Shown piece by piece: positions 50,000 to 59,918 of a stretch of 64,000 nucleotides of DNA. The position numbers were made by a program, and so were the translations under genes. The stretch is taken from NCBI GenBank assembly GCA_001873065.1, contig MNYM01000002.1, positions 6,781 through 70,780 of the forward strand, in the 5' to 3' direction. The DNA comes from Flavobacteriaceae bacterium CG2_30_31_66. GTDB lineage: Bacteria; Bacteroidota; Bacteroidia; Flavobacteriales; Flavobacteriaceae. Position 1 is the stretch's first letter, and each line of letters opens with the position of its first letter. A model generated the notes under the pieces. It saw only the letters and a list, made by a program, of their open reading frames with translations, was not told the origin of the DNA and made no database searches.

Positions 50000-51064
50000 T
50001 TACAACACTTTTTCTAACAACGCTATATAAATTGCAATGCCTTCTTCAATTTCGGCAATATAAATAAATTCGTCAGCAGAATGTGAGCGTGTGCTATCAC
50101 CAGGACCCAATTTTAACGATTGGCAACTCAATACAGATTGATCAGATAATGTTGGTGAGCCATAGGTTTTTCTTCCAATAGCAATTCCAGCTTTAACCAA
50201 TTCGTGATCTGCAGAAATAGAGGAAGAGTTGAGTCGTAAACTTCGAGGTACAATTTTGGAACAAGGTGCTTTTTCTTGCAAAATTGAAGCAATTTCCTGA
50301 TTTGAATAGGCATCATTCACGCGAACATCAATCACTAAATCTACATGTGCCGGAACTACATTGTGCTGTTTTCCTGCATTGATTTGGGTAACTGTCATTT
50401 TTACTTCACCCAAAGTTGTAGAATTTTTTTCAAATTTAAAATCCTTAAACCATTGCAACACTTCAATAGTTTTATAAATCGCATTATCGCTATTTGGATG
50501 GGCAGCGTGACTTGGAGTACCTTCAACAACTGCATCAAAAACAACCAAGCCTTTTTCTGCAACTGCCAGGTTCATCAAAGTTGGTTCGCCAATAATTGCA
50601 ACATCAATTTTTGGAATAATAGATAACATACTATTCAAACCGTTTTCGCCACTACTTTCCTCTTCTGCAGAAGCTACAATCACAAGATTGTATTTTAAAT
50701 TTCTTTGATGATAAAAATAGGTAAAAGTGGCAATCAATGAAACCAAACAACCCCCTGCGTCATTGCTCCCTAAACCAAATAATTTTCCATTTTCAACAAT
50801 CGCTTTAAAAGGATTTTTAGTAAAAGCTGAATTTGGTTTTACAGTATCATGATGAGAGTTTAGCAGTAAAGTTGGTTTGCTATCATCAAAATAGTTGTTC
50901 ATAGCCCAAATATTATTTCTAGATCTTTGGTAAGGAATTTCAAACTGCTTGAACCAATTTTCAATTAAAAGGGCTGTTTGATCTTCTTCAGCAGAAAAAG
51001 ACGGAGTTTCAATCAACTTTTTTAAAAGCGAAATTGCTTCGATAGTTAGTTTTTTGAGTTCCAT
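50000..51064 (-). CDS. argE: M20 family N-acyl-ornithine/citrulline deacylase (ArgE-like)
   Basis: NSHHDTV, GLGSND, EEE, GEPT, SHAAH, HSADE; last gene of the arg operon. Confidence 0.85.
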   Translation of the reverse strand: MELKKLTIEAISLLKKLIETPSFSAEEDQTALLIENWFKQFEIPYQRSRNNIWAMNNYFDDSKPTLLLNSHHDTVKPNSAFTKNPFKAIVENGKLFGLGSNDAGGCLVSLIATFTYFYHQRNLKYNLVIVASAEEESSGENGLNSMLSIIPKIDVAIIGEPTLMNLAVAEKGLVVFDAVVEGTPSHAAHPNSDNAIYKTIEVLQWFKDFKFEKNSTTLGEVKMTVTQINAGKQHNVVPAHVDLVIDVRVNDAYSNQEIASILQEKAPCSKIVPRSLRLNSSSISADHELVKAGIAIGRKTYGSPTLSDQSVLSCQSLKLGPGDSTRSHSADEFIYIAEIEEGIAIYIALLEKVL

Positions 51065-51841
51065 TTATAGTGTAATTTTTGTAAAGTTTTCGTTTTCTTT
51101 AGTTAAAATAGTTGTATTTCCCATAAAAACAGCATGAACGCCATTTTTTAGAGCATCAAAACAATTTTCAAGTTTTGGCAACATTCCATCAGCAATAATT
51201 CCTTCGTTTAATAAATTTTTATAACTAGCAGCATTGATGTGTTTTATAACCGAATTTTTATCATTGATATCCTCCAAAACACCATTCAATTCAAAACAAT
51301 AATAAATACTTGTTTCGTAATTTTTACTCATTCCAATGGCAATTTGACTCGTAATAGTATCTGCATTTGTGTTTAATAATTGTCCATTTCCATCATGTGT
51401 AATAGCACAAAAAACAGGCGTAAAATCATGATTTATCAACACTTCAATAGCTTGGTTATTAACATTTTTCACATCACCTACAAAACCATAATCAACCTCT
51501 TTTACAGGTCTTTTTGAAGACAAAATACAATTTCCGTCAGCACCAGACAAACCAATACAATTGGTGTTTAATGATTGCAATTTAGCTACTATATTTTTAT
51601 TGACCAGACCACCATAAACCATTGTAATTACCTCTAATGTTTCAGCATCAGTAATCCTTCTTCCATTGGTCATTTTAGATGTTATTCCTAATTTAGTAGA
51701 CATTTGTGACGCTTTTTTTCCTCCACCATGAACTAATAATTTCTTTCCTTTTATTTTTGAAAATAAATGAAGAAAATTATTCAAAGCATTTTCATCTTCA
51801 ATGATATTTCCACCGATTTTGATGATTGACAGTTTTTCCAT
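51065..51841 (-). CDS. argB: N-acylglutamate kinase
   Basis: IKIGG, VHGGG, GRRITD, LNTNAD, GMLPK. Confidence 0.94.
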   Translation of the reverse strand: MEKLSIIKIGGNIIEDENALNNFLHLFSKIKGKKLLVHGGGKKASQMSTKLGITSKMTNGRRITDAETLEVITMVYGGLVNKNIVAKLQSLNTNCIGLSGADGNCILSSKRPVKEVDYGFVGDVKNVNNQAIEVLINHDFTPVFCAITHDGNGQLLNTNADTITSQIAIGMSKNYETSIYYCFELNGVLEDINDKNSVIKHINAASYKNLLNEGIIADGMLPKLENCFDALKNGVHAVFMGNTTILTKENENFTKITL

Positions 51842-51865
51842 TTTTCCTCTTTTTTGACAAGGAGT

Positions 51866-52819
51866 TTAAACCCTTTGCTGTATTTGCAATTCTAATATTT
51901 TTTTCAACACCAATTGCGCAGCAAAAGTTCGATTATTGGCCTGCTGAATTACCAACGAATTTTCAGAATCTAACACAGCATCTTCAACGACCACATTTCT
52001 TCTGACAGGCAAACAATGCATGAATTTTGCATCCCCAATTTTTTCTTTGGTAATCATCCAATCAGGACTTGTATTTAAAATTTGTCCATACGAATCGTAG
52101 GAACTCCAATTTTTAGCATATACAAAATCTGCATTTTTTAGAGCTTCTTTTTGATCGTGAATAATAGAAATTTCTTTGGTAATCGTTTTGTTCAAATCAT
52201 AACCTTCAGGATTTGTAATCACAAAATCAACATTCATTTTTTGCATGGCTTCCACAAAACTATTTGGGACTGCATGAGGCAACGCTTTTACGTGAGGCGC
52301 CCAAGACAAAACCACTTTGGGTCTTTTTTTGGTTGAATTTTCAGCAATAGTAATGGCATCGGTTAAGCCTTGCAAAGGATGACTTGTAGCGCTTTCCATA
52401 TTGATAATTGGTACAGAAGCGTATTTCATAAATGCGTTTAAAACCTGTTCATTTTCGTCTTTTGCTTTGTCTTTCAACGTTGGAAATGCACGAATTGCAA
52501 TCACATCACAATATTGAGAAACCACAGCAGCAGCTTCTTTGATATGCTCAGCAGTGGCGCCATTCATGATACTTCCATTTTCGAATTCAATTCCCCATGC
52601 ATCTTCAGAAACGTTCATGACAATAGTTTTCATTCCTAAATTCAACGCTGCTTTTTGAGTACTCAAACGTGTCCGTAAACTCGAATTGAAAAACAATAGA
52701 CCCAATGTTTTGTTCTTGCCTAATTTTTTATTTTTTAAGGGATTTTCCTTTATTTTTTTAGCTTCTTTAATCCAAGAGTGGATATCAGAAATGTCTTGAA
52801 TAGCCGTGAAGTGCTTCAT
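51866..52819 (-). CDS. argF: N-acyl-ornithine carbamoyltransferase (ArgF'), predicted N-succinylornithine-specific
   Basis: SLRT, HPLQ, HCLP; AOTC/SOTC-type segments GSIMNGATAEH and WAPH. Confidence 0.88.
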   Translation of the reverse strand: MKHFTAIQDISDIHSWIKEAKKIKENPLKNKKLGKNKTLGLLFFNSSLRTRLSTQKAALNLGMKTIVMNVSEDAWGIEFENGSIMNGATAEHIKEAAAVVSQYCDVIAIRAFPTLKDKAKDENEQVLNAFMKYASVPIINMESATSHPLQGLTDAITIAENSTKKRPKVVLSWAPHVKALPHAVPNSFVEAMQKMNVDFVITNPEGYDLNKTITKEISIIHDQKEALKNADFVYAKNWSSYDSYGQILNTSPDWMITKEKIGDAKFMHCLPVRRNVVVEDAVLDSENSLVIQQANNRTFAAQLVLKKILELQIQQRV

Positions 52820-53943
52820 GATAATTCACTTTTTAGTGCATTCATAAAAATATCAATGTGCTTTTTTTGAATGGTTAATGGCGGTAAAATTCTTATAACA
52901 TATTGATTTTTAGCATTTCCTGTAAAAATATGATGTGTATTGATTAGATTCTTTCTAAGTTCAGCAATCGGAAAATCAAATTCCAAACCCAACATCAAAC
53001 CACGACCTTTGATTCTTTTTACTTGAGGAATTTCTTGCACTTTTTCAATAAAATAGTGAGACATATTTCTCGCATTTTCCATCAATTTTTCTTCTTCAAT
53101 CACATTTAAAACACTTAAAGAGGCTGCACAAGCCAAATGATTTCCGCCAAAAGTTGTTCCTAACAAACCAAAAGATGCTTTGATATGCTTGTGAATCAAA
53201 ATACCACCTACGGGAAATCCATTGCCCATTCCTTTTGCCATTGAAATAATATCAGGAGTTACGTTGTATTTATGGAATGCAAAAAAATTGCCTGTTCTTC
53301 CAAATCCTGATTGCACTTCATCCGCAATAAAACATGCGCCATATTTTTTGCAAAGAGTATCAATTCCCTCATAAAATTCGGTAGTACTTTCATCCAAACC
53401 ACCAACTCCTTGAATACATTCAATAATTACTGCGCAAACATCATTTTTTGAAAGTGCATTTTCTAGTGCTACTAAATCACCCAAAGGCAAAATTTCTACT
53501 TCTTGCTGCGCGTTCAAAGGCGCAATAATTTTTGCATCATCAGTAGCAGCAACAGCCGCTGAAGTTCGTCCATGAAAACTATTTTTGAAAGCAATAATTT
53601 TTTTCTTGTTAGTATGAAATGATGCTAATTTTAGTGCGTTTTCATTGGCTTCAGCACCAGAATTGCACATAAACAATTCATAATCAATGCAACAAGAAAG
53701 TTGTGCTAACTTTTCTGACAATGCTTCTTGTAAAGGATTTTGAATAGAATTGCTATAAAATCCCAGATTTGCTACTTGATGACTCACAGCTTCCACATAT
53801 TTTGGATGTGAATGTCCAATTGAAATCACTGCATGACCTCCATATAAATCCAAATATTCAACACCTTTGTCATCATACACAAAAACATCTTTTGCCTTAA
53901 CAGGAGTGATGTCAAACAAAGGATAAACATTAAACAAACTCAT
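52816..53943 (-). CDS. argD: N-acyl-ornithine aminotransferase (class III PLP enzyme)
   Basis: NSGAEANE, FHGRT, DEVQSG.GRTG, AKGMGNG. Confidence 0.92.
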   Translation of the reverse strand: MSLFNVYPLFDITPVKAKDVFVYDDKGVEYLDLYGGHAVISIGHSHPKYVEAVSHQVANLGFYSNSIQNPLQEALSEKLAQLSCCIDYELFMCNSGAEANENALKLASFHTNKKKIIAFKNSFHGRTSAAVAATDDAKIIAPLNAQQEVEILPLGDLVALENALSKNDVCAVIIECIQGVGGLDESTTEFYEGIDTLCKKYGACFIADEVQSGFGRTGNFFAFHKYNVTPDIISMAKGMGNGFPVGGILIHKHIKASFGLLGTTFGGNHLACAASLSVLNVIEEEKLMENARNMSHYFIEKVQEIPQVKRIKGRGLMLGLEFDFPIAELRKNLINTHHIFTGNAKNQYVIRILPPLTIQKKHIDIFMNALKSELS

Positions 53944-54740
53944 ATTTGTTCTTTTTTTATGTTGTTAATTTTATTGAATGAGGCTACCATTCCATGAATC
54001 AAAGACGAACTCAATCCTTTGTGTTCCATTTCGTTCAAACCTTCAATAGTGCAACCTTTTGGAGTGGTTACCTTATCTATTTCTTCCTCTGGATGATTGC
54101 CATTTACAATCAATAAATTGGCAGCACCTTCGCAAGTAAACATTGCCAATTCTTGGGCTTCTTTTGCATCAAAACCCAATTGAATGGCGGCTTGTGTAGT
54201 TGCTCTAATCAAACGCATCCAAAAAGCAACACCACTTGCGCAAACTACAGTTGCAGCTTGCATTTGATTTTCTGGAATTGTCAATGAATGTCCTAATCTG
54301 TTAAAAATCGCTTCTGCAATTTTAATCCTGTTTTTTCCTTGTTCATTGCTACACAAACAGGTCATTGATTTTCCAACTGCAATCGCAGTATTTGGCATTG
54401 CTCTAATGATAAAAGTCTCTTTTCCAACAGTTTCCTCGATTTTTGAAATTCCAAAACCTGTCACTGTCGAAATAAGCACATGTTTGTTTGTTAAAAAAGG
54501 CGTAATTTCTTGTAAAATCTTCTCTAAATGAGCAGGTTGCACAGCCAAAATTAAAATATCTGAGTTCTGAACAACTTCTTTATTGTCAGTTGTTAAAAAC
54601 ACATTTTTGTACCCGTCAAATTCAGAAATACTCCCCAAATTTCGTCTTGAAAGGTATAAAGTTGTGATGGCATTGTCAATAATGAGCCCTTTTGCGATGG
54701 ATTTTCCTAAATTTCCAGTACCTATAATTGCTATTTTCAT
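53940..54740 (-). CDS. proC: Pyrroline-5-carboxylate reductase
   Basis: GTGNLG, RAMPN, VTTPKGCTIEG. Confidence 0.94.
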   Translation of the reverse strand: MKIAIIGTGNLGKSIAKGLIIDNAITTLYLSRRNLGSISEFDGYKNVFLTTDNKEVVQNSDILILAVQPAHLEKILQEITPFLTNKHVLISTVTGFGISKIEETVGKETFIIRAMPNTAIAVGKSMTCLCSNEQGKNRIKIAEAIFNRLGHSLTIPENQMQAATVVCASGVAFWMRLIRATTQAAIQLGFDAKEAQELAMFTCEGAANLLIVNGNHPEEEIDKVTTPKGCTIEGLNEMEHKGLSSSLIHGMVASFNKINNIKKEQI

Positions 54741-54749
54741 GTGATTTTT

Positions 54750-55727
54750 TTAAAAATAATTGGCTTTGATATTTAATCCTAAAGTTTCTTGAAAGCCAAA
54801 CATCAAATTCATGTTTTGAATTGCTTGACCTGAAGCACCTTTTAATAAATTATCTATAATACTTGTTATCAATAATTTATTATTCTTTTTTTCTAAATGC
54901 AATAAACATTTATTGGTGTTAACTACCTGTTTTAAATGCAGTTCATTTTCAGAAATAAATGTAAAAGTAGCCTCTTTATAATAGTTTTGATACATTTCTT
55001 TTGCATCCTCTATGTTTCCTTTATATTTTGTATAAATCGTTGCAAAAATTCCTCTTGAAAAATTTCCTCTATTTGGAATAAAATTAATTTCTGATGAAAA
55101 TTGCGGTTGTAGTTGTTGAACTGTTTGATTAATTTCATCTAAATGTTGGTGCGAAAAAGCTTTGTAATGTGAGAAATTGTTATCCCTCCAAGGAAAATGA
55201 GATGTTGCTGAAACTAATGTTCCTGCTCCTGTAGCACCAGTTACAGCATGAATATGAATATCATCAAATAGTAAATGATTGGCAGCTAATGGCAAAATAG
55301 CTAACTGCAAAGCTGTTGCAAAACAACCAGGATTTGCAATGTGTTTGGCAGATTTTATTTTTTCTTTTTGAAGTTCTGGCAAACCATAAACGAAGTCTTT
55401 TCCATCGAAATTTTGATTCAATTCCAATCTAAAATCGTTACTTAAATCAATAATTCTCGTGTTTTCTGAAAACGAATTTTCTCCTAAAAATGTAATTGAA
55501 TTTCCATGTCCTAAACATAAAAATAAGACATCAACTCTTGGATTTATTTTATTAGTAAATTCAATTTCAGTATCACCCAACAAATCTTGATGCACGTCAT
55601 AAATTTTATTTCCTGCGTTGGAGGTGCTGTACACAAAATTAATTTCAGCTTTTGGATGGTGTAACAGCAAACGAATGAGTTCGCCAGCTGTATATCCTGC
55701 ACCACCTATAATTCCAACTTGAATCAT
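54750..55727 (-). CDS. argC: N-acyl-gamma-glutamyl-phosphate reductase
   Basis: GGAGYTAGEL, YGLPE, ANPGCF, DNLLKGASGQA. Confidence 0.96.
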   Translation of the reverse strand: MIQVGIIGGAGYTAGELIRLLLHHPKAEINFVYSTSNAGNKIYDVHQDLLGDTEIEFTNKINPRVDVLFLCLGHGNSITFLGENSFSENTRIIDLSNDFRLELNQNFDGKDFVYGLPELQKEKIKSAKHIANPGCFATALQLAILPLAANHLLFDDIHIHAVTGATGAGTLVSATSHFPWRDNNFSHYKAFSHQHLDEINQTVQQLQPQFSSEINFIPNRGNFSRGIFATIYTKYKGNIEDAKEMYQNYYKEATFTFISENELHLKQVVNTNKCLLHLEKKNNKLLITSIIDNLLKGASGQAIQNMNLMFGFQETLGLNIKANYF

Positions 55728-56908
55728 AATTCTTCTTTATTTACTTGCTGATATATTTTGTTCTGATTACCCAAAATTTTGATAAAACCTTTGGCATCAT
55801 CAGCTGTCCAAACTTTATTTTCTTCACCATAACTTCCAAATTTTGCATTCATCAAATCATGAGGAGAGGAAACGCCATCAAGCGTAAAATGATAAGGTTT
55901 TAGCGTTACAAAAACACTTCCAGAAACATTTTTTTGACTGCTTTCTAAAAAAGCTTCTATATTTCTCATTACAGGATCCAAATATTGACCTTCATGTAAA
56001 TGCATTCCATAAAAACTTGCCAAATATTCTTTGTGTTGCAATTGCCATTTGGTGAGCGTGTGTTTTTCTAATAAATGATGCGCTTTTATAGTAATCAATG
56101 CAGCTGCCGCTTCAAAACCAACTCTTCCTTTGATTCCAACAATGGTGTCTCCCACATGAATATCTCTTCCAATGGCATATTTTGTAGCAAACAAATTCAA
56201 CAATTCAATACATTTTTCAGGGTCATCAATTTTGCCATTTACAGCAACCAAATGTCCTTTATTAAAAGTCAATACCACTTTTTGATATCCTTCTTTTTCC
56301 AATTGAGACGGATAGGCACTTTCTGGTAAAGGCATTGTTGAAGTAAGCGTTTCTTCACCGCCAACACTAGTTCCCCACAAACCTTTATTGATAGAATATT
56401 TTGCTTTTTCCCAAGGCATGTTGATTCCTTCAGATTTCAAATAATCTATTTCTTGTTGTCTTGTTAATTTTTCATCTCTGATAGGAGTGATGATGGTAAT
56501 ATGTGGCGCCAAAGTTTGAAAAATCATATCAAAACGCACTTGGTCATTTCCTGCACCTGTACTTCCATGCGCAATAAAGTCGGCTTTGATACTTTTGGCA
56601 TATTCAATAATTTCAATGGCTTGAATGATGCGTTCAGCACTTACTGACAAGGGATAAGTATTATTTTTCAATACATTTCCATATACCAAATATTTCACTA
56701 CTTTTTGATAAAAAGAGGAAACAGCATCAATACATTTATAATTAGAAACGCCCATTTTGTAAGCATTTTTCTCAATATTTTTGATATCTTCTTCTTTAAA
56801 ACCGCCTGTATTTACGGTAACAGCATGAACCTTATATTTTTTTGATAATTTAACAGCGCAATACGAAGTATCTAAACCCCCACTATAAGCGATTACTAAT
56901 TTTTTCAT
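55724..56908 (-). CDS. argG: Argininosuccinate synthase
   Basis: AYSGGLDTS, HGSTGAGNDQVRF, IVGIKGR. Confidence 0.96.
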   Translation of the reverse strand: MKKLVIAYSGGLDTSYCAVKLSKKYKVHAVTVNTGGFKEEDIKNIEKNAYKMGVSNYKCIDAVSSFYQKVVKYLVYGNVLKNNTYPLSVSAERIIQAIEIIEYAKSIKADFIAHGSTGAGNDQVRFDMIFQTLAPHITIITPIRDEKLTRQQEIDYLKSEGINMPWEKAKYSINKGLWGTSVGGEETLTSTMPLPESAYPSQLEKEGYQKVVLTFNKGHLVAVNGKIDDPEKCIELLNLFATKYAIGRDIHVGDTIVGIKGRVGFEAAAALITIKAHHLLEKHTLTKWQLQHKEYLASFYGMHLHEGQYLDPVMRNIEAFLESSQKNVSGSVFVTLKPYHFTLDGVSSPHDLMNAKFGSYGEENKVWTADDAKGFIKILGNQNKIYQQVNKEEL

Positions 56909-57522
56909 TTTTTATCTTTTTTTAAGAACAAGTTTTGTTTCATGTTTTTCAATCTATAAAAAACCTTTTCTTTTATTTTTTTTGGAGCTTCTTTTGATTG
57001 GTTATTTGAATCATATAGCATGCCTGTGCACAAGCACATTTTTCTGTTGGTTCTTGTCAAAACATCATAGTTGACGCAGGTTTGACAACCATCCCAAAAG
57101 GTTTGATCGTCTGTTAATTCTGAGAATGTAACAGGTTTATAACCCAAACTTGTGTTAAGTTTCATCACAGCCAAACCAGTTGTGATACTAAAAATTTTAG
57201 CATCAGGAAATTTGGTTCTTGAATGATCAAAAACAACTTGCTTTATTTTTTTTGACAATCCCAAACCACGATAATCAGGATGAACAATCAATCCTGAGTT
57301 GGCTACGAATTTTCCATGTCCCCATTGTTCGATGTAACAAAATCCGGCAAATTTTTCATCATCTAAAGCAATAACTGCGTTGCCATTTTCCATTTTAGTG
57401 GCAATATATTCTGGTTTACGCTTTGCAATTCCTGTGCCTCTTACTTTTGCAGCATCTTCAATAGTTTTGCAAATAATTTCTGCGTATGCAATATGAGTTT
57501 TATCAGCAATGACAATTTTCAT
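56905..57522 (-). CDS. argA: GNAT N-acyltransferase, Bacteroidota-type N-acylglutamate synthase
   Basis: GNAT motif A (VHPDYRGLGLS); first gene of the arg operon; SAxxRGTGIAKR-like N-terminus. The ArgA role is inferred from context. Confidence 0.7.
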   Translation of the reverse strand: MKIVIADKTHIAYAEIICKTIEDAAKVRGTGIAKRKPEYIATKMENGNAVIALDDEKFAGFCYIEQWGHGKFVANSGLIVHPDYRGLGLSKKIKQVVFDHSRTKFPDAKIFSITTGLAVMKLNTSLGYKPVTFSELTDDQTFWDGCQTCVNYDVLTRTNRKMCLCTGMLYDSNNQSKEAPKKIKEKVFYRLKNMKQNLFLKKDKK

Positions 57523-57613
57523 TGAAATTGAATTTTTAGTTTAAAAAATAGTTAAAGGTCGATTTTTGAGAGTAGAATTGGACTCACCTAATTCTGTAAA
57601 CGTAAACAAACCC

Positions 57614-57706
57614 CTAAGGGCGTGTGACAAACTGACTAGAAATTGTAACATTGTTATTGTGTAAAATAACTTGAAAATGTTGATGAGCTTTGGTTGATTG
57701 TTTCAT
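57614..57706 (-). CDS. Putative arg-operon leader peptide (30 aa)
   Basis: Manual translation MKQSTKAHQHFQVILHNNNVTISSQFVTRP*; sole Arg (CGC) is penultimate; below the ORF-track cutoff. Confidence 0.45.
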   Translation of the reverse strand: MKQSTKAHQHFQVILHNNNVTISSQFVTRP

Positions 57707-58013
57707 GAAAAAAATAAAAAATTAGTAAACTTGAATAGCATAGATCTTTTAATAAAGATTAACAGCGTTTGCATAGCAAACGCAAACTGGGTACTATTGA
57801 AGAGTAAATTTTATTTTTAAAAATTCTAATCATAAAGTAAAAGTATATATTTTTTAAAACTTAATATAAAAAATACACTGTTATTTTATCATTTTTATCA
57901 AATTATAAATATTATCAGATTTTAATTATCATATTAATAAATAAATCCTTTATAAATAATTTATCAATAATGAATGATATGTCTTTAAGGTGTGTTCTCT
58001 TAAGTTTTAGGAG

Positions 58014-58046
58014 ATGACAATTCATCCTCAAAAAATGACAGTTCAG
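58014..58046 (+). promoter_or_regulatory. LytTR-type direct-repeat binding site
   Basis: ACAATTCAT (58017-58025) + 12 bp + ACAGTTCAG (58038-58046); both are preceded by ATG. Confidence 0.75.
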
Positions 58047-58118
58047 TAAGATTCAATTTATCTAACTGAAATCTTGTAGCATTTTTGTGGCATCATTAAT
58101 CTTAAAAACATAAAAATT

Positions 58119-58535
58119 ATGAAATTAGTAAAATCAATCGTAGTCATGGCAGTTTTATTCATCACGAATTCAGTAATTGCCCAAGAAAAAGCAACCCTCA
58201 CAGCAGAAGTTATCAATGTCACTTCCGATGCTGGAAAAGTAGGTTTTGCATTGTATGACAAAGCATCTTTTATGCTAAAACCAATTCAAGCAGCAAATGC
58301 AAAAATTGTAGAAGGGAAAAGTACTGTAACTTTTGAAAACGTTCCTTTTGGTGAATATGCCATTATTTGTTATCATGACAAAAATGATAATGACAAAATG
58401 GATTTTTCTGCCAACGGAATGCCTACTGAAGATTTTGGAGCATCCAATAATGTAATGACTTTTGGTCCTCCAACTTTTGATGGTGCAAAGTTTGCAGTTT
58501 CAGAGAAAAATGTATCTTTAAGGATTAAATTTTAA
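58119..58535 (+). CDS. DUF2141 domain exported protein
   Basis: Signal peptide; G.V..ALY, GEYAI..YHDKN.N.KMD, P.E.FG.SNN, GPP.F. Confidence 0.88.
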   Translation: MKLVKSIVVMAVLFITNSVIAQEKATLTAEVINVTSDAGKVGFALYDKASFMLKPIQAANAKIVEGKSTVTFENVPFGEYAIICYHDKNDNDKMDFSANGMPTEDFGASNNVMTFGPPTFDGAKFAVSEKNVSLRIKF

Positions 58536-58565
58536 TAGCCATTTTTAACACAAATTTCATTGATT

Positions 58566-59918
58566 ATGACTTCCAATATCTCGCTGAGAAATACCATTAA
58601 AGAAGGTTTCTTAACAAGTTTGAAAATAACTTTCATTTTTGCAGTCGTTTTCACGGTGCTTAATCAAGATTTTACTTTCAAAGGTGTTTTATATACCATT
58701 TTAATATCTGGAATGTATTCTTTTGGTTTGGGTTTTGGACAAGGCGTTATCAATGATACATTGAGTAAAAAATGGAGTTGGGTTGATGAGACCAATCAGC
58801 GAGTTTGGATAGGTATTATTGCTACAATTGGCTACACAATTCCTGTAGTTTTTTTGATAAATTACATCAATTTTATTGTCATCAATGGTAATAATCCAGC
58901 TAATTTTTTTAAGGGAAATACTGTTTGGGTTCACTTTTTTTACATCATTTTATCTTTCGGAATTTCAGCATTTTTGCATGCAAGAAGTTTTATGATTGAA
59001 TGGAAAAAATCGATAAAACAAGAAAGTACTCTACAAGAAATTGTTGCAAAAACTGAAACAGCCAAATTTGAATCTTTAAAAAATCAAATAGACCCACATT
59101 TTTTATTCAATAGTTTAAATGTATTGACCAGTTTAATCAATGAAAATCCTAGTCAGGCAGAGAAATTTACCACCAAATTGTCAAAAATTTACAGGTATGT
59201 TTTGGAACAAAGAAACAAAGATTTGATTCCATTGTCAGAAGAATTGCATTTTGCAAAAACCTATATGGAGCTTTTAGGAATGCGTTTTGAAGACGCTGTG
59301 AAGTTCAATATACCAGATAATGTAAGCAATAACGAGCTTAAAATTGTGCCACTTTCGCTACAATTATTATTAGAAAATGCGGTAAAACACAATGTAGTTT
59401 CTTCGTACAAACCTTTGACTATTAGTATTTATGAAGAAAATGATTATTTGGTTATACAAAATAATGTAAACTCTAAAGAGGCTGTTGGAAAAAGTACCAA
59501 AGTAGGATTGCAAAACATCGCTGACAGGTATGGATTGATTACTCAAAAAAGTGTGCAAATAGAAAATAATAACAAAACATTTACAGTGAGGATTCCCCTC
59601 TTATATAAAATAAACAATATCATGTATCCAAAAGATTTAGAAAATAGCAACTACGTAAAAGCCGTAGAAAAAGTAAAAAAATTAAAAGAATTTTATCAAA
59701 ATTTAGCCTCCTATTGCATCATAATTCCCTTATTAGTGGTGATTAATTTGCAATTCATGCCAAGATTTTATTGGTTTTGGTTTCCGATGTTTGGATGGGG
59801 AATTGGCTTGTTTTTTCATTTTTTAGAAGTTAATAATTATTCATTTTTTCTGGGAGATAACTGGGAAGAAAGAAAAATAAAAGAGTTAATGGAAAAAGAA
59901 CAACAAAACAAATTTTAA
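58566..59918 (+). CDS. LytS-like membrane histidine kinase with C-terminal 2TM domain
   Basis: Four N-terminal TMs; LKNQIDPHFLFNSLN H-box, LLENAVKHN N-box; C-terminal KVKKLKEFY..L...WFWFPMFGWGIGLFFH...WEERKIKELM. Confidence 0.9.
   Translation: MTSNISLRNTIKEGFLTSLKITFIFAVVFTVLNQDFTFKGVLYTILISGMYSFGLGFGQGVINDTLSKKWSWVDETNQRVWIGIIATIGYTIPVVFLINYINFIVINGNNPANFFKGNTVWVHFFYIILSFGISAFLHARSFMIEWKKSIKQESTLQEIVAKTETAKFESLKNQIDPHFLFNSLNVLTSLINENPSQAEKFTTKLSKIYRYVLEQRNKDLIPLSEELHFAKTYMELLGMRFEDAVKFNIPDNVSNNELKIVPLSLQLLLENAVKHNVVSSYKPLTISIYEENDYLVIQNNVNSKEAVGKSTKVGLQNIADRYGLITQKSVQIENNNKTFTVRIPLLYKINNIMYPKDLENSNYVKAVEKVKKLKEFYQNLASYCIIIPLLVVINLQFMPRFYWFWFPMFGWGIGLFFHFLEVNNYSFFLGDNWEERKIKELMEKEQQNKF

Follow-up and report, generated by a model that had tools for sequence, protein, structure and literature searches.

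The arg operon of Flavobacteriaceae bacterium CG2_30_31_66 is preceded by a leader that is apparently a conserved and so far undescribed element of most Flavobacteriaceae. Comparison of this leader across the family supports the presence of a conserved, translated-looking open reading frame, uORF2, ahead of an arg operon that lacks ArgR. On balance, and with modest confidence, we favor a model in which the leader responds to hungry Arg codons by relieving a premature, probably Rho-dependent termination of the arg operon. The window referred to in this study is the whole stretch of 64,000 nucleotides that was analyzed (contig MNYM01000002.1), and both the leader and the operon lie on its minus strand.

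The leader open reading frame and the operon behind it

The arg operon (50000-57522, minus strand) consists of genes for a GNAT acetyltransferase, argG, argC, proC, argD, argF' (acyl-ornithine carbamoyltransferase), argB and argE. Its first gene, called argA in the initial annotation, encodes a GNAT acetyltransferase of 205 aa whose nearest named relatives are from Polaribacter (94-96% identity), by which the organism is a Polaribacter; other carriers include Winogradskyella, Algibacter, Psychroserpens, Lacinutrix, Olleya, Tamlana, Flavivirga, Tenacibaculum, Nonlabens and Gelidibacter. The gene for pyrroline-5-carboxylate reductase, proC, sits between argC and argD (53940-54740, minus strand), and because it is embedded in the arg operon, proline synthesis would share the arginine-sensing leader.

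Arginine biosynthesis is the textbook example of control by the ArgR repressor and not by attenuation. The initial annotation had seen no argR for this operon, and this proved to hold far beyond the operon itself: the Arg_repressor_C domain was found neither anywhere in the 2.99-Mb genome to which the window belongs nor in any of 201 Flavobacteriaceae genomes (200 genera), and the same search detected the domain in Bacteroides thetaiotaomicron and seven other control genomes. The genome does carry a rho gene. Its tRNA-Arg genes are one tRNA-Arg(ACG), together with tRNA-Arg(UCG) and tRNA-Arg(UCU), and the codons CGC and CGT are read by the single tRNA-Arg(ACG) gene.

In the window, uORF2 encodes MKQSTKAHQHFQVILHNNNVTISSQFVTRP in 30 codons (57614-57706, minus strand), with the ATG at 57706 and the TAG at 57616-57614. 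The frame is present as it was initially described, ending about 90 nt before argA (91 nt from its end to the GNAT start at 57522) and having as its only Arg codon the penultimate CGC (57622-57620). A set of 112 non-identical Flavobacteriaceae leaders was used for comparison, with some hairpin and tail counts based on 114, 111 or 100 sequences. The frame that carries this CGC through the hairpin at the end of uORF2 (hairpin A) was open for at least 22 codons in 112/112 leaders (median 39), whereas the other two frames reached 20 codons in only 28% and 21% of leaders, which rules out chance as the explanation for uORF2. A start codon was found in 111 of the 112 leaders, and among 28 congener leaders the CGC-CCN frame was open in every one, with ATG, TTG or GTG at the same position in each. 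The T-rich stretch before the ATG had been taken as an argument against translation. However, this stretch turns out to be the conserved 3' strand of an upstream module together with its U-run, and the start codon is kept in 28/28 congeners.

The expectation that a uORF ending in Arg-Pro-stop would recur across the Flavobacteriaceae was borne out. Arg immediately before Pro (position 0) and the Pro itself were both present in 112/112 leaders, and the stop followed Pro directly in 90/112 (TAA in 73). Arg was also found at position -1 in 93/112 leaders, at -2 in 49/112 and at -5 and -6 in about half. Most leaders end in R-R-P-stop, with the Arg-run variants RRP, RRRP and RRRRP. The other 22 leaders, many of them from Polaribacter, read on past Pro (RPLGV-stop), and the congener peptides end in VRRFFxxRP followed by either a stop or LGV-stop. 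Near-invariance is confined to the last two or three residues. Positions -3 to -7 are weakly conserved with the pattern V-R-(R/P)-x-F, and no residue conservation was detected in the 112 leaders more than nine positions back.

The leaders have a median of 4 Arg within the last 16 residues, and the number of Arg codons ranges from 1 to 7. Codon choice is strongly biased, as 225 of 440 leader Arg codons were CGC, 174 were CGT and 9 were AGA (CGC and CGT together 399/440, 91%). In the window's long open reading frames the corresponding values were 4.8% CGC, 15% CGT and 59% AGA. The bias toward CGY is present at positions -5 and -6 as well, which lie outside hairpin A. The uORF2 of the window is the most Arg-poor of all, being the sole leader of the 112 with a single Arg, and its closest relatives have one or two Arg codons in uORF2 with hairpins A and B intact. 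The window copy is thus the weakest seen, and since its uORF2 keeps one Arg codon and the upstream uORF1 two, the local sensor may be weak.

Conserved hairpins, the upstream module and the range of the leader

Hairpin A of the window (57607-57626, minus strand; CAC.GCCC-UUAG-GGGU.UUG, with the core CGCCC-loop-GGGUR) has a predicted stability of -8.1 kcal/mol (z = -2.1). It encloses the stop together with the codons for the last Arg and for Pro (CGC-CCU-UAG in the window), with the stop at the loop, in agreement with the initial annotation. In the family this hairpin is near-invariant, with an invariant CGCCC, a variable loop of 3-5 nt (GUAA in 67/111; UUU, UUA and others elsewhere) and GGGUR. 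Its G.U pair was retained in 95 of 100 sequences, and the stem is 5-9 bp long, often extended to 7-9 bp, with a mean dG of -8.4 kcal/mol. The placement of Arg-Pro-stop inside a hairpin is the most conserved feature of the predicted element. Further upstream, within uORF2, is hairpin H0 (57653-57670, minus strand; GUUAUU-UUACAC-AAUAAC; z = -16). Measured from the center of its loop, such a hairpin precedes hairpin A by 39 +/- 3 nt in roughly 75 of the 112 leaders, and its stem sequences are unrelated between genera.

A U-rich spacer (57596-57606, minus strand; 10-15 nt in the family) separates hairpin A from hairpin B (57574-57595, minus strand; AGAAUU-A-GG-UGAGU-CC-AAUUCU; -5.2 kcal/mol), and the distance between the two hairpins is 30-35 nt. 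Hairpin B is built of a covarying stem of 5-6 bp with a bulged (U)A, and of GG-UGNGU-CC, in which the loop AGGUGAGUCC is invariant. In this loop, AGGUGNGUCC, N was A in 80 leaders, U in 19 and C in 13. The stem pairs take forms such as GGAAUU/AAUUCC, GAACC/GGUUC, GGAGAU/AUCUCC and UGAACU/AGUUCA, with two-sided changes in 6/6 stem pairs, a score that none of 500 shuffles reached, and a comparison of duplexes within species with those across species gave p = 3e-23. Of the covarying hairpins looked for in these leaders, hairpin B is thus one. The initial annotation had further proposed two mutually exclusive stems here that would switch between each other. One of them, AGAAUU/AAUUCU, is the covarying stem of hairpin B. 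The other, GAGU/ACUC, can form in the window. Only 8/112 leaders, however, have ACUC after the loop, and we take the GAGU..ACUC pairing in the window as a product of chance; the proposed switch between the stems is not conserved. Among 55 segment pairs that were compared, no covarying antiterminator or other helix was found besides the stem of hairpin B.

The linker from hairpin B to the GNAT start codon (57523-57573, minus strand) is A/U-rich and G-poor. Across the family it contains 5.6% G with a C/G ratio of 2.4-3.3, the C/G excess near the Arg codons is modest (1.4-1.9), and 85-100 nt of untranslated, G-poor RNA lie between the uORF2 stop and the first gene. As had been remarked on initially, no clear or consistent U-tract terminator follows the uORF. 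Hairpin B is followed by at most 3 U in 9 bases in 75/114 leaders. The spacer between A and B is 56% U across the family and irregular; at least 5 of the first 9 bases after hairpin A are U in 70/114 leaders, at least 6 T in 10 nt are found in only 42-56%, and some tails, for example GCGCGCUAACUAUGG, are almost without U. Leaders that have only the uORF2 module do not have more U-rich tails than the others.

Several other roles for these hairpins were considered and rejected. The arms of hairpin B covary for pairing and not for sequence, which points to RNA and away from a DNA operator or promoter, and the spacing of the hairpin does not fit an ECF-type -35/-10 promoter. Its U-poor tail in most genera argues against hairpin B as an intrinsic terminator. 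A third frame starting in hairpin B, uORF3 (MELGESNS...), differs in start codon and frame between species, and re-initiation at a GUG in hairpin A with termination at a UAG in hairpin B is contradicted by an A-B distance that is not confined to multiples of three. A loop-receptor contact between A and B would call for a GNRA loop, which about 40% of leaders do not have. Comparison with the two-hairpin Guanidine-II (mini-ykkC) riboswitch failed on the missing ACGR tetraloops, the A loop being variable and the B loop being UGNGU. Pairing of the hairpin B loop with 16S rRNA in the manner of a Shine-Dalgarno sequence was also considered. The draft assembly has no recognizable 16S rRNA 3' end, its rRNA operon being apparently unassembled, and the tail was taken from congeners. 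In these relatives it is GGAACACCUCCUUUCU, with which AGGUG and UCC are able to pair, but perfect pairing is possible only for the N=U variant of the loop (19/112), and this is at most a loose lead. Bacteroidia ribosomes have been reported to be blind to Shine-Dalgarno sequences (PMC13000453).

Sequestration of the GNAT start was set aside as well, since the 3' part of uORF2 or the U-rich spacer did not co-evolve with the GNAT start region family-wide (p = 0.45) and pairing of UUUUCC with GGAAAAUG is limited to one clade. In that clade (L045, L038, L059, L073 and L098, all from other genera), the UUUUCC of the Phe-Pro codons of uORF2 (-4/-3), directly ahead of the Arg run, could pair with AGGAAAAUG at the GNAT start in a predicted duplex of -11 to -15 kcal/mol, and a stalled ribosome would free the start codon. 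A separate observation is that the Polaribacter GNAT start codon lies within a small hairpin, ACAAU-GNAA-AUUGU (57512-57527 in the window, minus strand), whose stem takes in the AU of the AUG and whose GNRA-like loop opens with the G. Near the AUG, bases are predicted to be unpaired with a probability that falls to 0.15-0.35 in Polaribacter. This hairpin was not seen in other genera, and it may just reflect a conserved M-x-I-V coding sequence.

Upstream of uORF2 lies a second frame that the initial annotation had overlooked. This frame, uORF1, encodes MIRIFKNKIYSSIVPSLRLLCKRC (57759-57833, minus strand) and contains two Arg codons. A promoter-like -7 box, TACTTTTA, is predicted at 57838-57845 (minus strand), 4 nt before the uORF1 ATG, which means that uORF1 would be nearly leaderless. 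The box is TACATTTG or TAGATTTG in relatives, and the congener alignment has a box of the TAnnTTTG type 4-6 nt ahead of the uORF1 ATG. In Flavobacterium, TAnnTTTG serves as the sigma-A -7 box (PMC9723704). In the minimum-free-energy fold, the A-rich codons (KNK...) of uORF1 together with CUUCAAUAG form the 5' strand of a long-range helix, P1 (57794-57823, minus strand). Its 3' strand (CUAUUCAAG...) and the U-run UAAUUUUUUAUUUUUUUC (57707-57738, minus strand) are terminator-like and span the initiation region of uORF2. A perfect hairpin, GCGUUUGC-UAU-GCAAACGC (57765-57783, minus strand; -11.1 kcal/mol, z = -3.9), has both uORF1 Arg codons inside it.

This arrangement was found in 59-60 of the 112 leaders, including those of Polaribacter, in the order promoter, uORF1, U-run, uORF2, hairpin A and hairpin B. 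The remaining 53 leaders have no uORF1 and carry a TAnnTTTG box about 7 nt before the uORF2 ATG. In 60 leaders uORF1 has a median length of 22 codons and its last 9 residues include 3-5 Arg, for which CGC is the codon in 74% of cases, and in relatives it ends in sequences such as RNRRR, RRRRF, RLRNRRR or RRRRPMRRS directly before the stop. The A-rich N-terminal codons (KNKIR) pair with a stretch whose end is the U-run directly ahead of uORF2, and helix P1 co-evolves, with -11.25 kcal/mol within species versus -7.99 kcal/mol between species (p = 2e-13). In its modeled fold, P1 with the U-run looks like a terminator whose 5' strand could be covered by a stalled ribosome and any queued behind it, and P1 would also occlude the uORF2 initiation region.

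A covariance model built from hairpins A and B, for which E-values are rough because of a short calibration, gave one match in the genome of the window. It matched 122/201 Flavobacteriaceae genomes (121/200 genera), with a single copy in all but one, and 79/80 named Flavobacteriaceae loci. Every examined match lay 58-72 nt upstream of the GNAT start, measured from hairpin B to the AUG, and bit scores of 46-70 together with single-copy matches in a fixed context leave little room for chance. Judged by this genomic context, the leader was shown to be linked exclusively to the arg operon. A 201-genome sample of the order gave no match outside the Flavobacteriaceae, and the motif was in none of 11 complete genomes of one Flavobacteriaceae genus. 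The leader of Polaribacter irgensii 23-P scored 28.8 bits, has GAGGU as the 3' arm of hairpin A and a uORF2 ending in RFNMRPLRS-stop, and may represent a copy in decay. A full-score leader motif (65 bits) and a 74% identical GNAT gene also occur on a 2.7-kb contig from a Lentisphaeria bin (JAKVBE010000054.1), which is most likely a mis-binned flavobacterial contig.

Related leaders were seen in other families of the order. One has a uORF encoding MNKTTKHINTLAPRFFRRPLWVLN with a CGCCCC-UUGU-GGGUG hairpin and a different second hairpin, another has a leader ending in YRRRPVRV-stop, and a third has no leader ORF. At two loci from another family (L143 and L145), a near-leaderless uORF ends in PRFFRRP, the CGCCCC...GGGUG hairpin is retained, and an 8-bp hairpin, UAUCGAGC...GCUCGAUA, followed by a U-rich tail stands in the place of hairpin B. 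The presence of the uORF and hairpin A without hairpin B in another family suggests that these two parts are older than B. An Rfam cmscan of 56500-58600 (E <= 10) gave chance-level matches only and none on the leader hairpins, and no Rfam family, including Bacteroid-trp, Flavo-1, guanidine and other riboswitches, matched the leader. The literature search found no arginine-biosynthesis leader peptide described for Bacteroidota.

A hungry-codon model and the alternatives to it

The model that we favor starts from translation of the short uORF2, whose last codons would present the ribosome with a run of rare CGC/CGU Arg codons, then Pro and the stop. When charged tRNA-Arg(ACG) is scarce, the ribosome would park on the Arg codons, hairpin A would stay melted and the ribosome would stay on the RNA. 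When arginine is plentiful, the ribosome would terminate and leave, and transcription would then end early, most likely through Rho following the polymerase. A parked ribosome would block Rho and the operon would be expressed. In Polaribacter and about half of the genera, uORF1, P1 and the U-run would act as an attenuator-like first gate that also occludes the uORF2 start region. What we infer here is that uORF2 is translated and that ribosomes stall on it, as well as the way in which the operon responds, the involvement of Rho and the function of hairpin B.

The coding-like ORF, the rare-codon Arg runs, the fusion of Arg-Pro-stop with a hairpin, the linkage to arg genes and the lack of ArgR together suggest that a ribosome on this leader reports the charging of tRNA-Arg. 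Without an alternative helix, a classical switch is excluded. The same lack, together with the problems of a weak terminator, the 85-100 nt of G-poor untranslated RNA, the presence of rho and the precedent of tnaC and orf34, leads us to favor relief of Rho-dependent polarity. In the Salmonella speF leader, orf34 has been reported to combine pausing at Arg codons with uORF translation that blocks Rho (PMC6386406).

The same stalling sensor could instead act on intrinsic termination. Hairpin A and the U-rich spacer would then be a weak terminator that a parked ribosome occludes as at pyrBI, with no need for an antiterminator. The Arg-Pro codons do form the 5' arm of hairpin A, the stem is often 7-9 bp long (mean dG -8.4 kcal/mol), U makes up 56% of the spacer and at least 5/9 of the tail in 70/114 leaders, and the uORF1 module, in which P1 is followed by a U-run, looks like exactly such a design. 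However, the stop lies in the loop of hairpin A, so a terminating ribosome would cover the hairpin as well, and a delay at the upstream Arg cluster would free hairpin A, which is the wrong sign. Many genera also have no U-rich tail (at least 6 T in 10 nt in only 42-56%), and the leaders that depend on the uORF2 module alone are not more U-rich, and we consider this output unlikely. Arrest of the ribosome at the stop by a nascent peptide ending in R-R-P together with free arginine or ornithine, as at TnaC, AAP and SpeFL, appears very improbable to us. Arg-Pro-stop is the most conserved feature of the peptide, Pro-stop is a known slow context for termination, and there is the weak V-R-(R/P)-x-F conservation further back. 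However, the number of Arg residues varies from 1 to 7, about 20% of leaders, many Polaribacter among them, read on as RPLGV-stop, and conservation does not extend further back than nine positions. For a biosynthetic operon, arrest at high arginine would need to shut expression down, opposite to tna and speF, with no mechanism visible, and the strong CGY bias, which extends outside the hairpin, points to tRNA sensing. The initial suggestion of such arrest by free arginine or ornithine thus found no specific support, and hungry-codon sensing fits better with a variable Arg number, a variable upstream peptide, about 20% of leaders reading past Pro and Arg codons that are almost all CGY.

The Rho model neither needs nor explains the invariance of hairpin A (its G.U pair included) and of the hairpin B loop, or the constant A-B and B-AUG distances. 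Hairpin A would remain free if a ribosome stalled at the upstream Arg cluster (-7 to -5), which means that the equivalence of the two clusters is not obvious, and the window has one Arg codon yet perfect hairpins A and B, which suggests that the hairpins have a role of their own. These unexplained sequences and spacings, and the loss of Arg codons with A and B intact, keep alive a reading in which a factor or ligand is bound. Hairpins A and B would then be a sequence-specific site for a trans factor, such as an arginine-responsive RNA-binding protein replacing ArgR, or for a small ligand such as arginine, with the uORF as an accessory or second input. The B loop AGGUGNGUCC and the arms of A are invariant over about 120 genera with a freely covarying B stem, and 95% of sequences retain the G.U pair of hairpin A where G-C would give a more stable stem. 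The A-B (30-35 nt) and B-AUG (58-72 nt) distances are fixed, and most Arg codons are gone from the window and its nearest relatives, in which A and B are intact. A bulge adjoining two G-C pairs recalls protein- or arginine-bound hairpins such as TAR and boxB, although this is a lead only. Against this, about 24 conserved nucleotides in two simple hairpins are little for an aptamer, the analysis turned up no candidate binding protein, hairpin B is missing from another family of the order that does have the uORF and hairpin A, and the Arg-codon runs and codon bias would need a separate explanation. Overall this reading seems improbable to us. More specifically, A and B may bind free arginine or a guanidino compound, an arginine-responsive RNA-binding protein or the Arg-rich leader peptide, combining ribosome- and RNA-based sensors. 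We regard this as distinctly unlikely, but if true it would mean that an RNA element, the first natural one to respond to arginine, stands in for ArgR throughout a bacterial family.

Known leaders and the control of arginine synthesis

The hungry-codon model shares its expected logic, in which stalling switches the operon on, with the classical attenuators (trpL, hisL, leuL, thrL and pheL), as it does the short ORF before a biosynthetic operon and the cluster of end-product codons near its 3' end. It differs from them in that arginine is the amino acid, the uORF2 module has no covarying terminator/antiterminator pair, an invariant hairpin carries the stop in its loop and there is an extra hairpin with an invariant loop. 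No described attenuator of arginine biosynthesis was found in the literature, and the leaders reported for F. psychrophilum are those of ilvE, hisG, aromatic and trp genes, with none for arg (PMC9723704).

E. coli TnaC also ends in Arg-Pro-stop, and its proposed mechanism likewise has a ribosome that blocks Rho in an untranslated spacer. However, TnaC senses free tryptophan via conserved tunnel residues and induces a catabolic operon, whereas the leader described here has a variable upstream peptide, a variable number of Arg codons and a biosynthetic operon. The orf34/SpeFL leader of speF in Salmonella and E. coli is similar in that uORF translation counters Rho and low-arginine pausing at consecutive Arg codons alters the fate of the mRNA (PMC6386406). 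It controls ornithine decarboxylase, though, acts through RNase G-sensitive alternative folds and ornithine-dependent arrest, and has no sequence or structural similarity to the flavobacterial leader. In the E. coli pyrBI attenuator the leader ORF enters the terminator hairpin and the ribosome itself prevents folding, as would be the case for hairpin A, but pyrBI senses UTP through polymerase pausing and not aminoacyl-tRNA. The fungal AAP is an arginine-responsive uORF of an arginine-biosynthesis gene as well. It is eukaryotic, though, and works by peptide-dependent arrest at the stop in high arginine, which blocks scanning, and it has no Arg-codon runs.

The data presented in this study describe a whole, ecologically dominant marine and freshwater family without ArgR, in which most of the genera sampled carry a highly conserved, mostly single-copy Arg-codon leader. 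The invariant loop of hairpin B and the Arg-Pro-stop hairpin are unexplained by any standard attenuator model, and both are small enough for mutagenesis. If confirmed, the leader would also be an example of leader-peptide control in bacteria that ignore Shine-Dalgarno sequences and start their uORFs at or near the 5' end. Confirmation would make this leader the regulator of arginine synthesis in the Flavobacteriaceae and would add a new amino-acid specificity to control by leader peptides.
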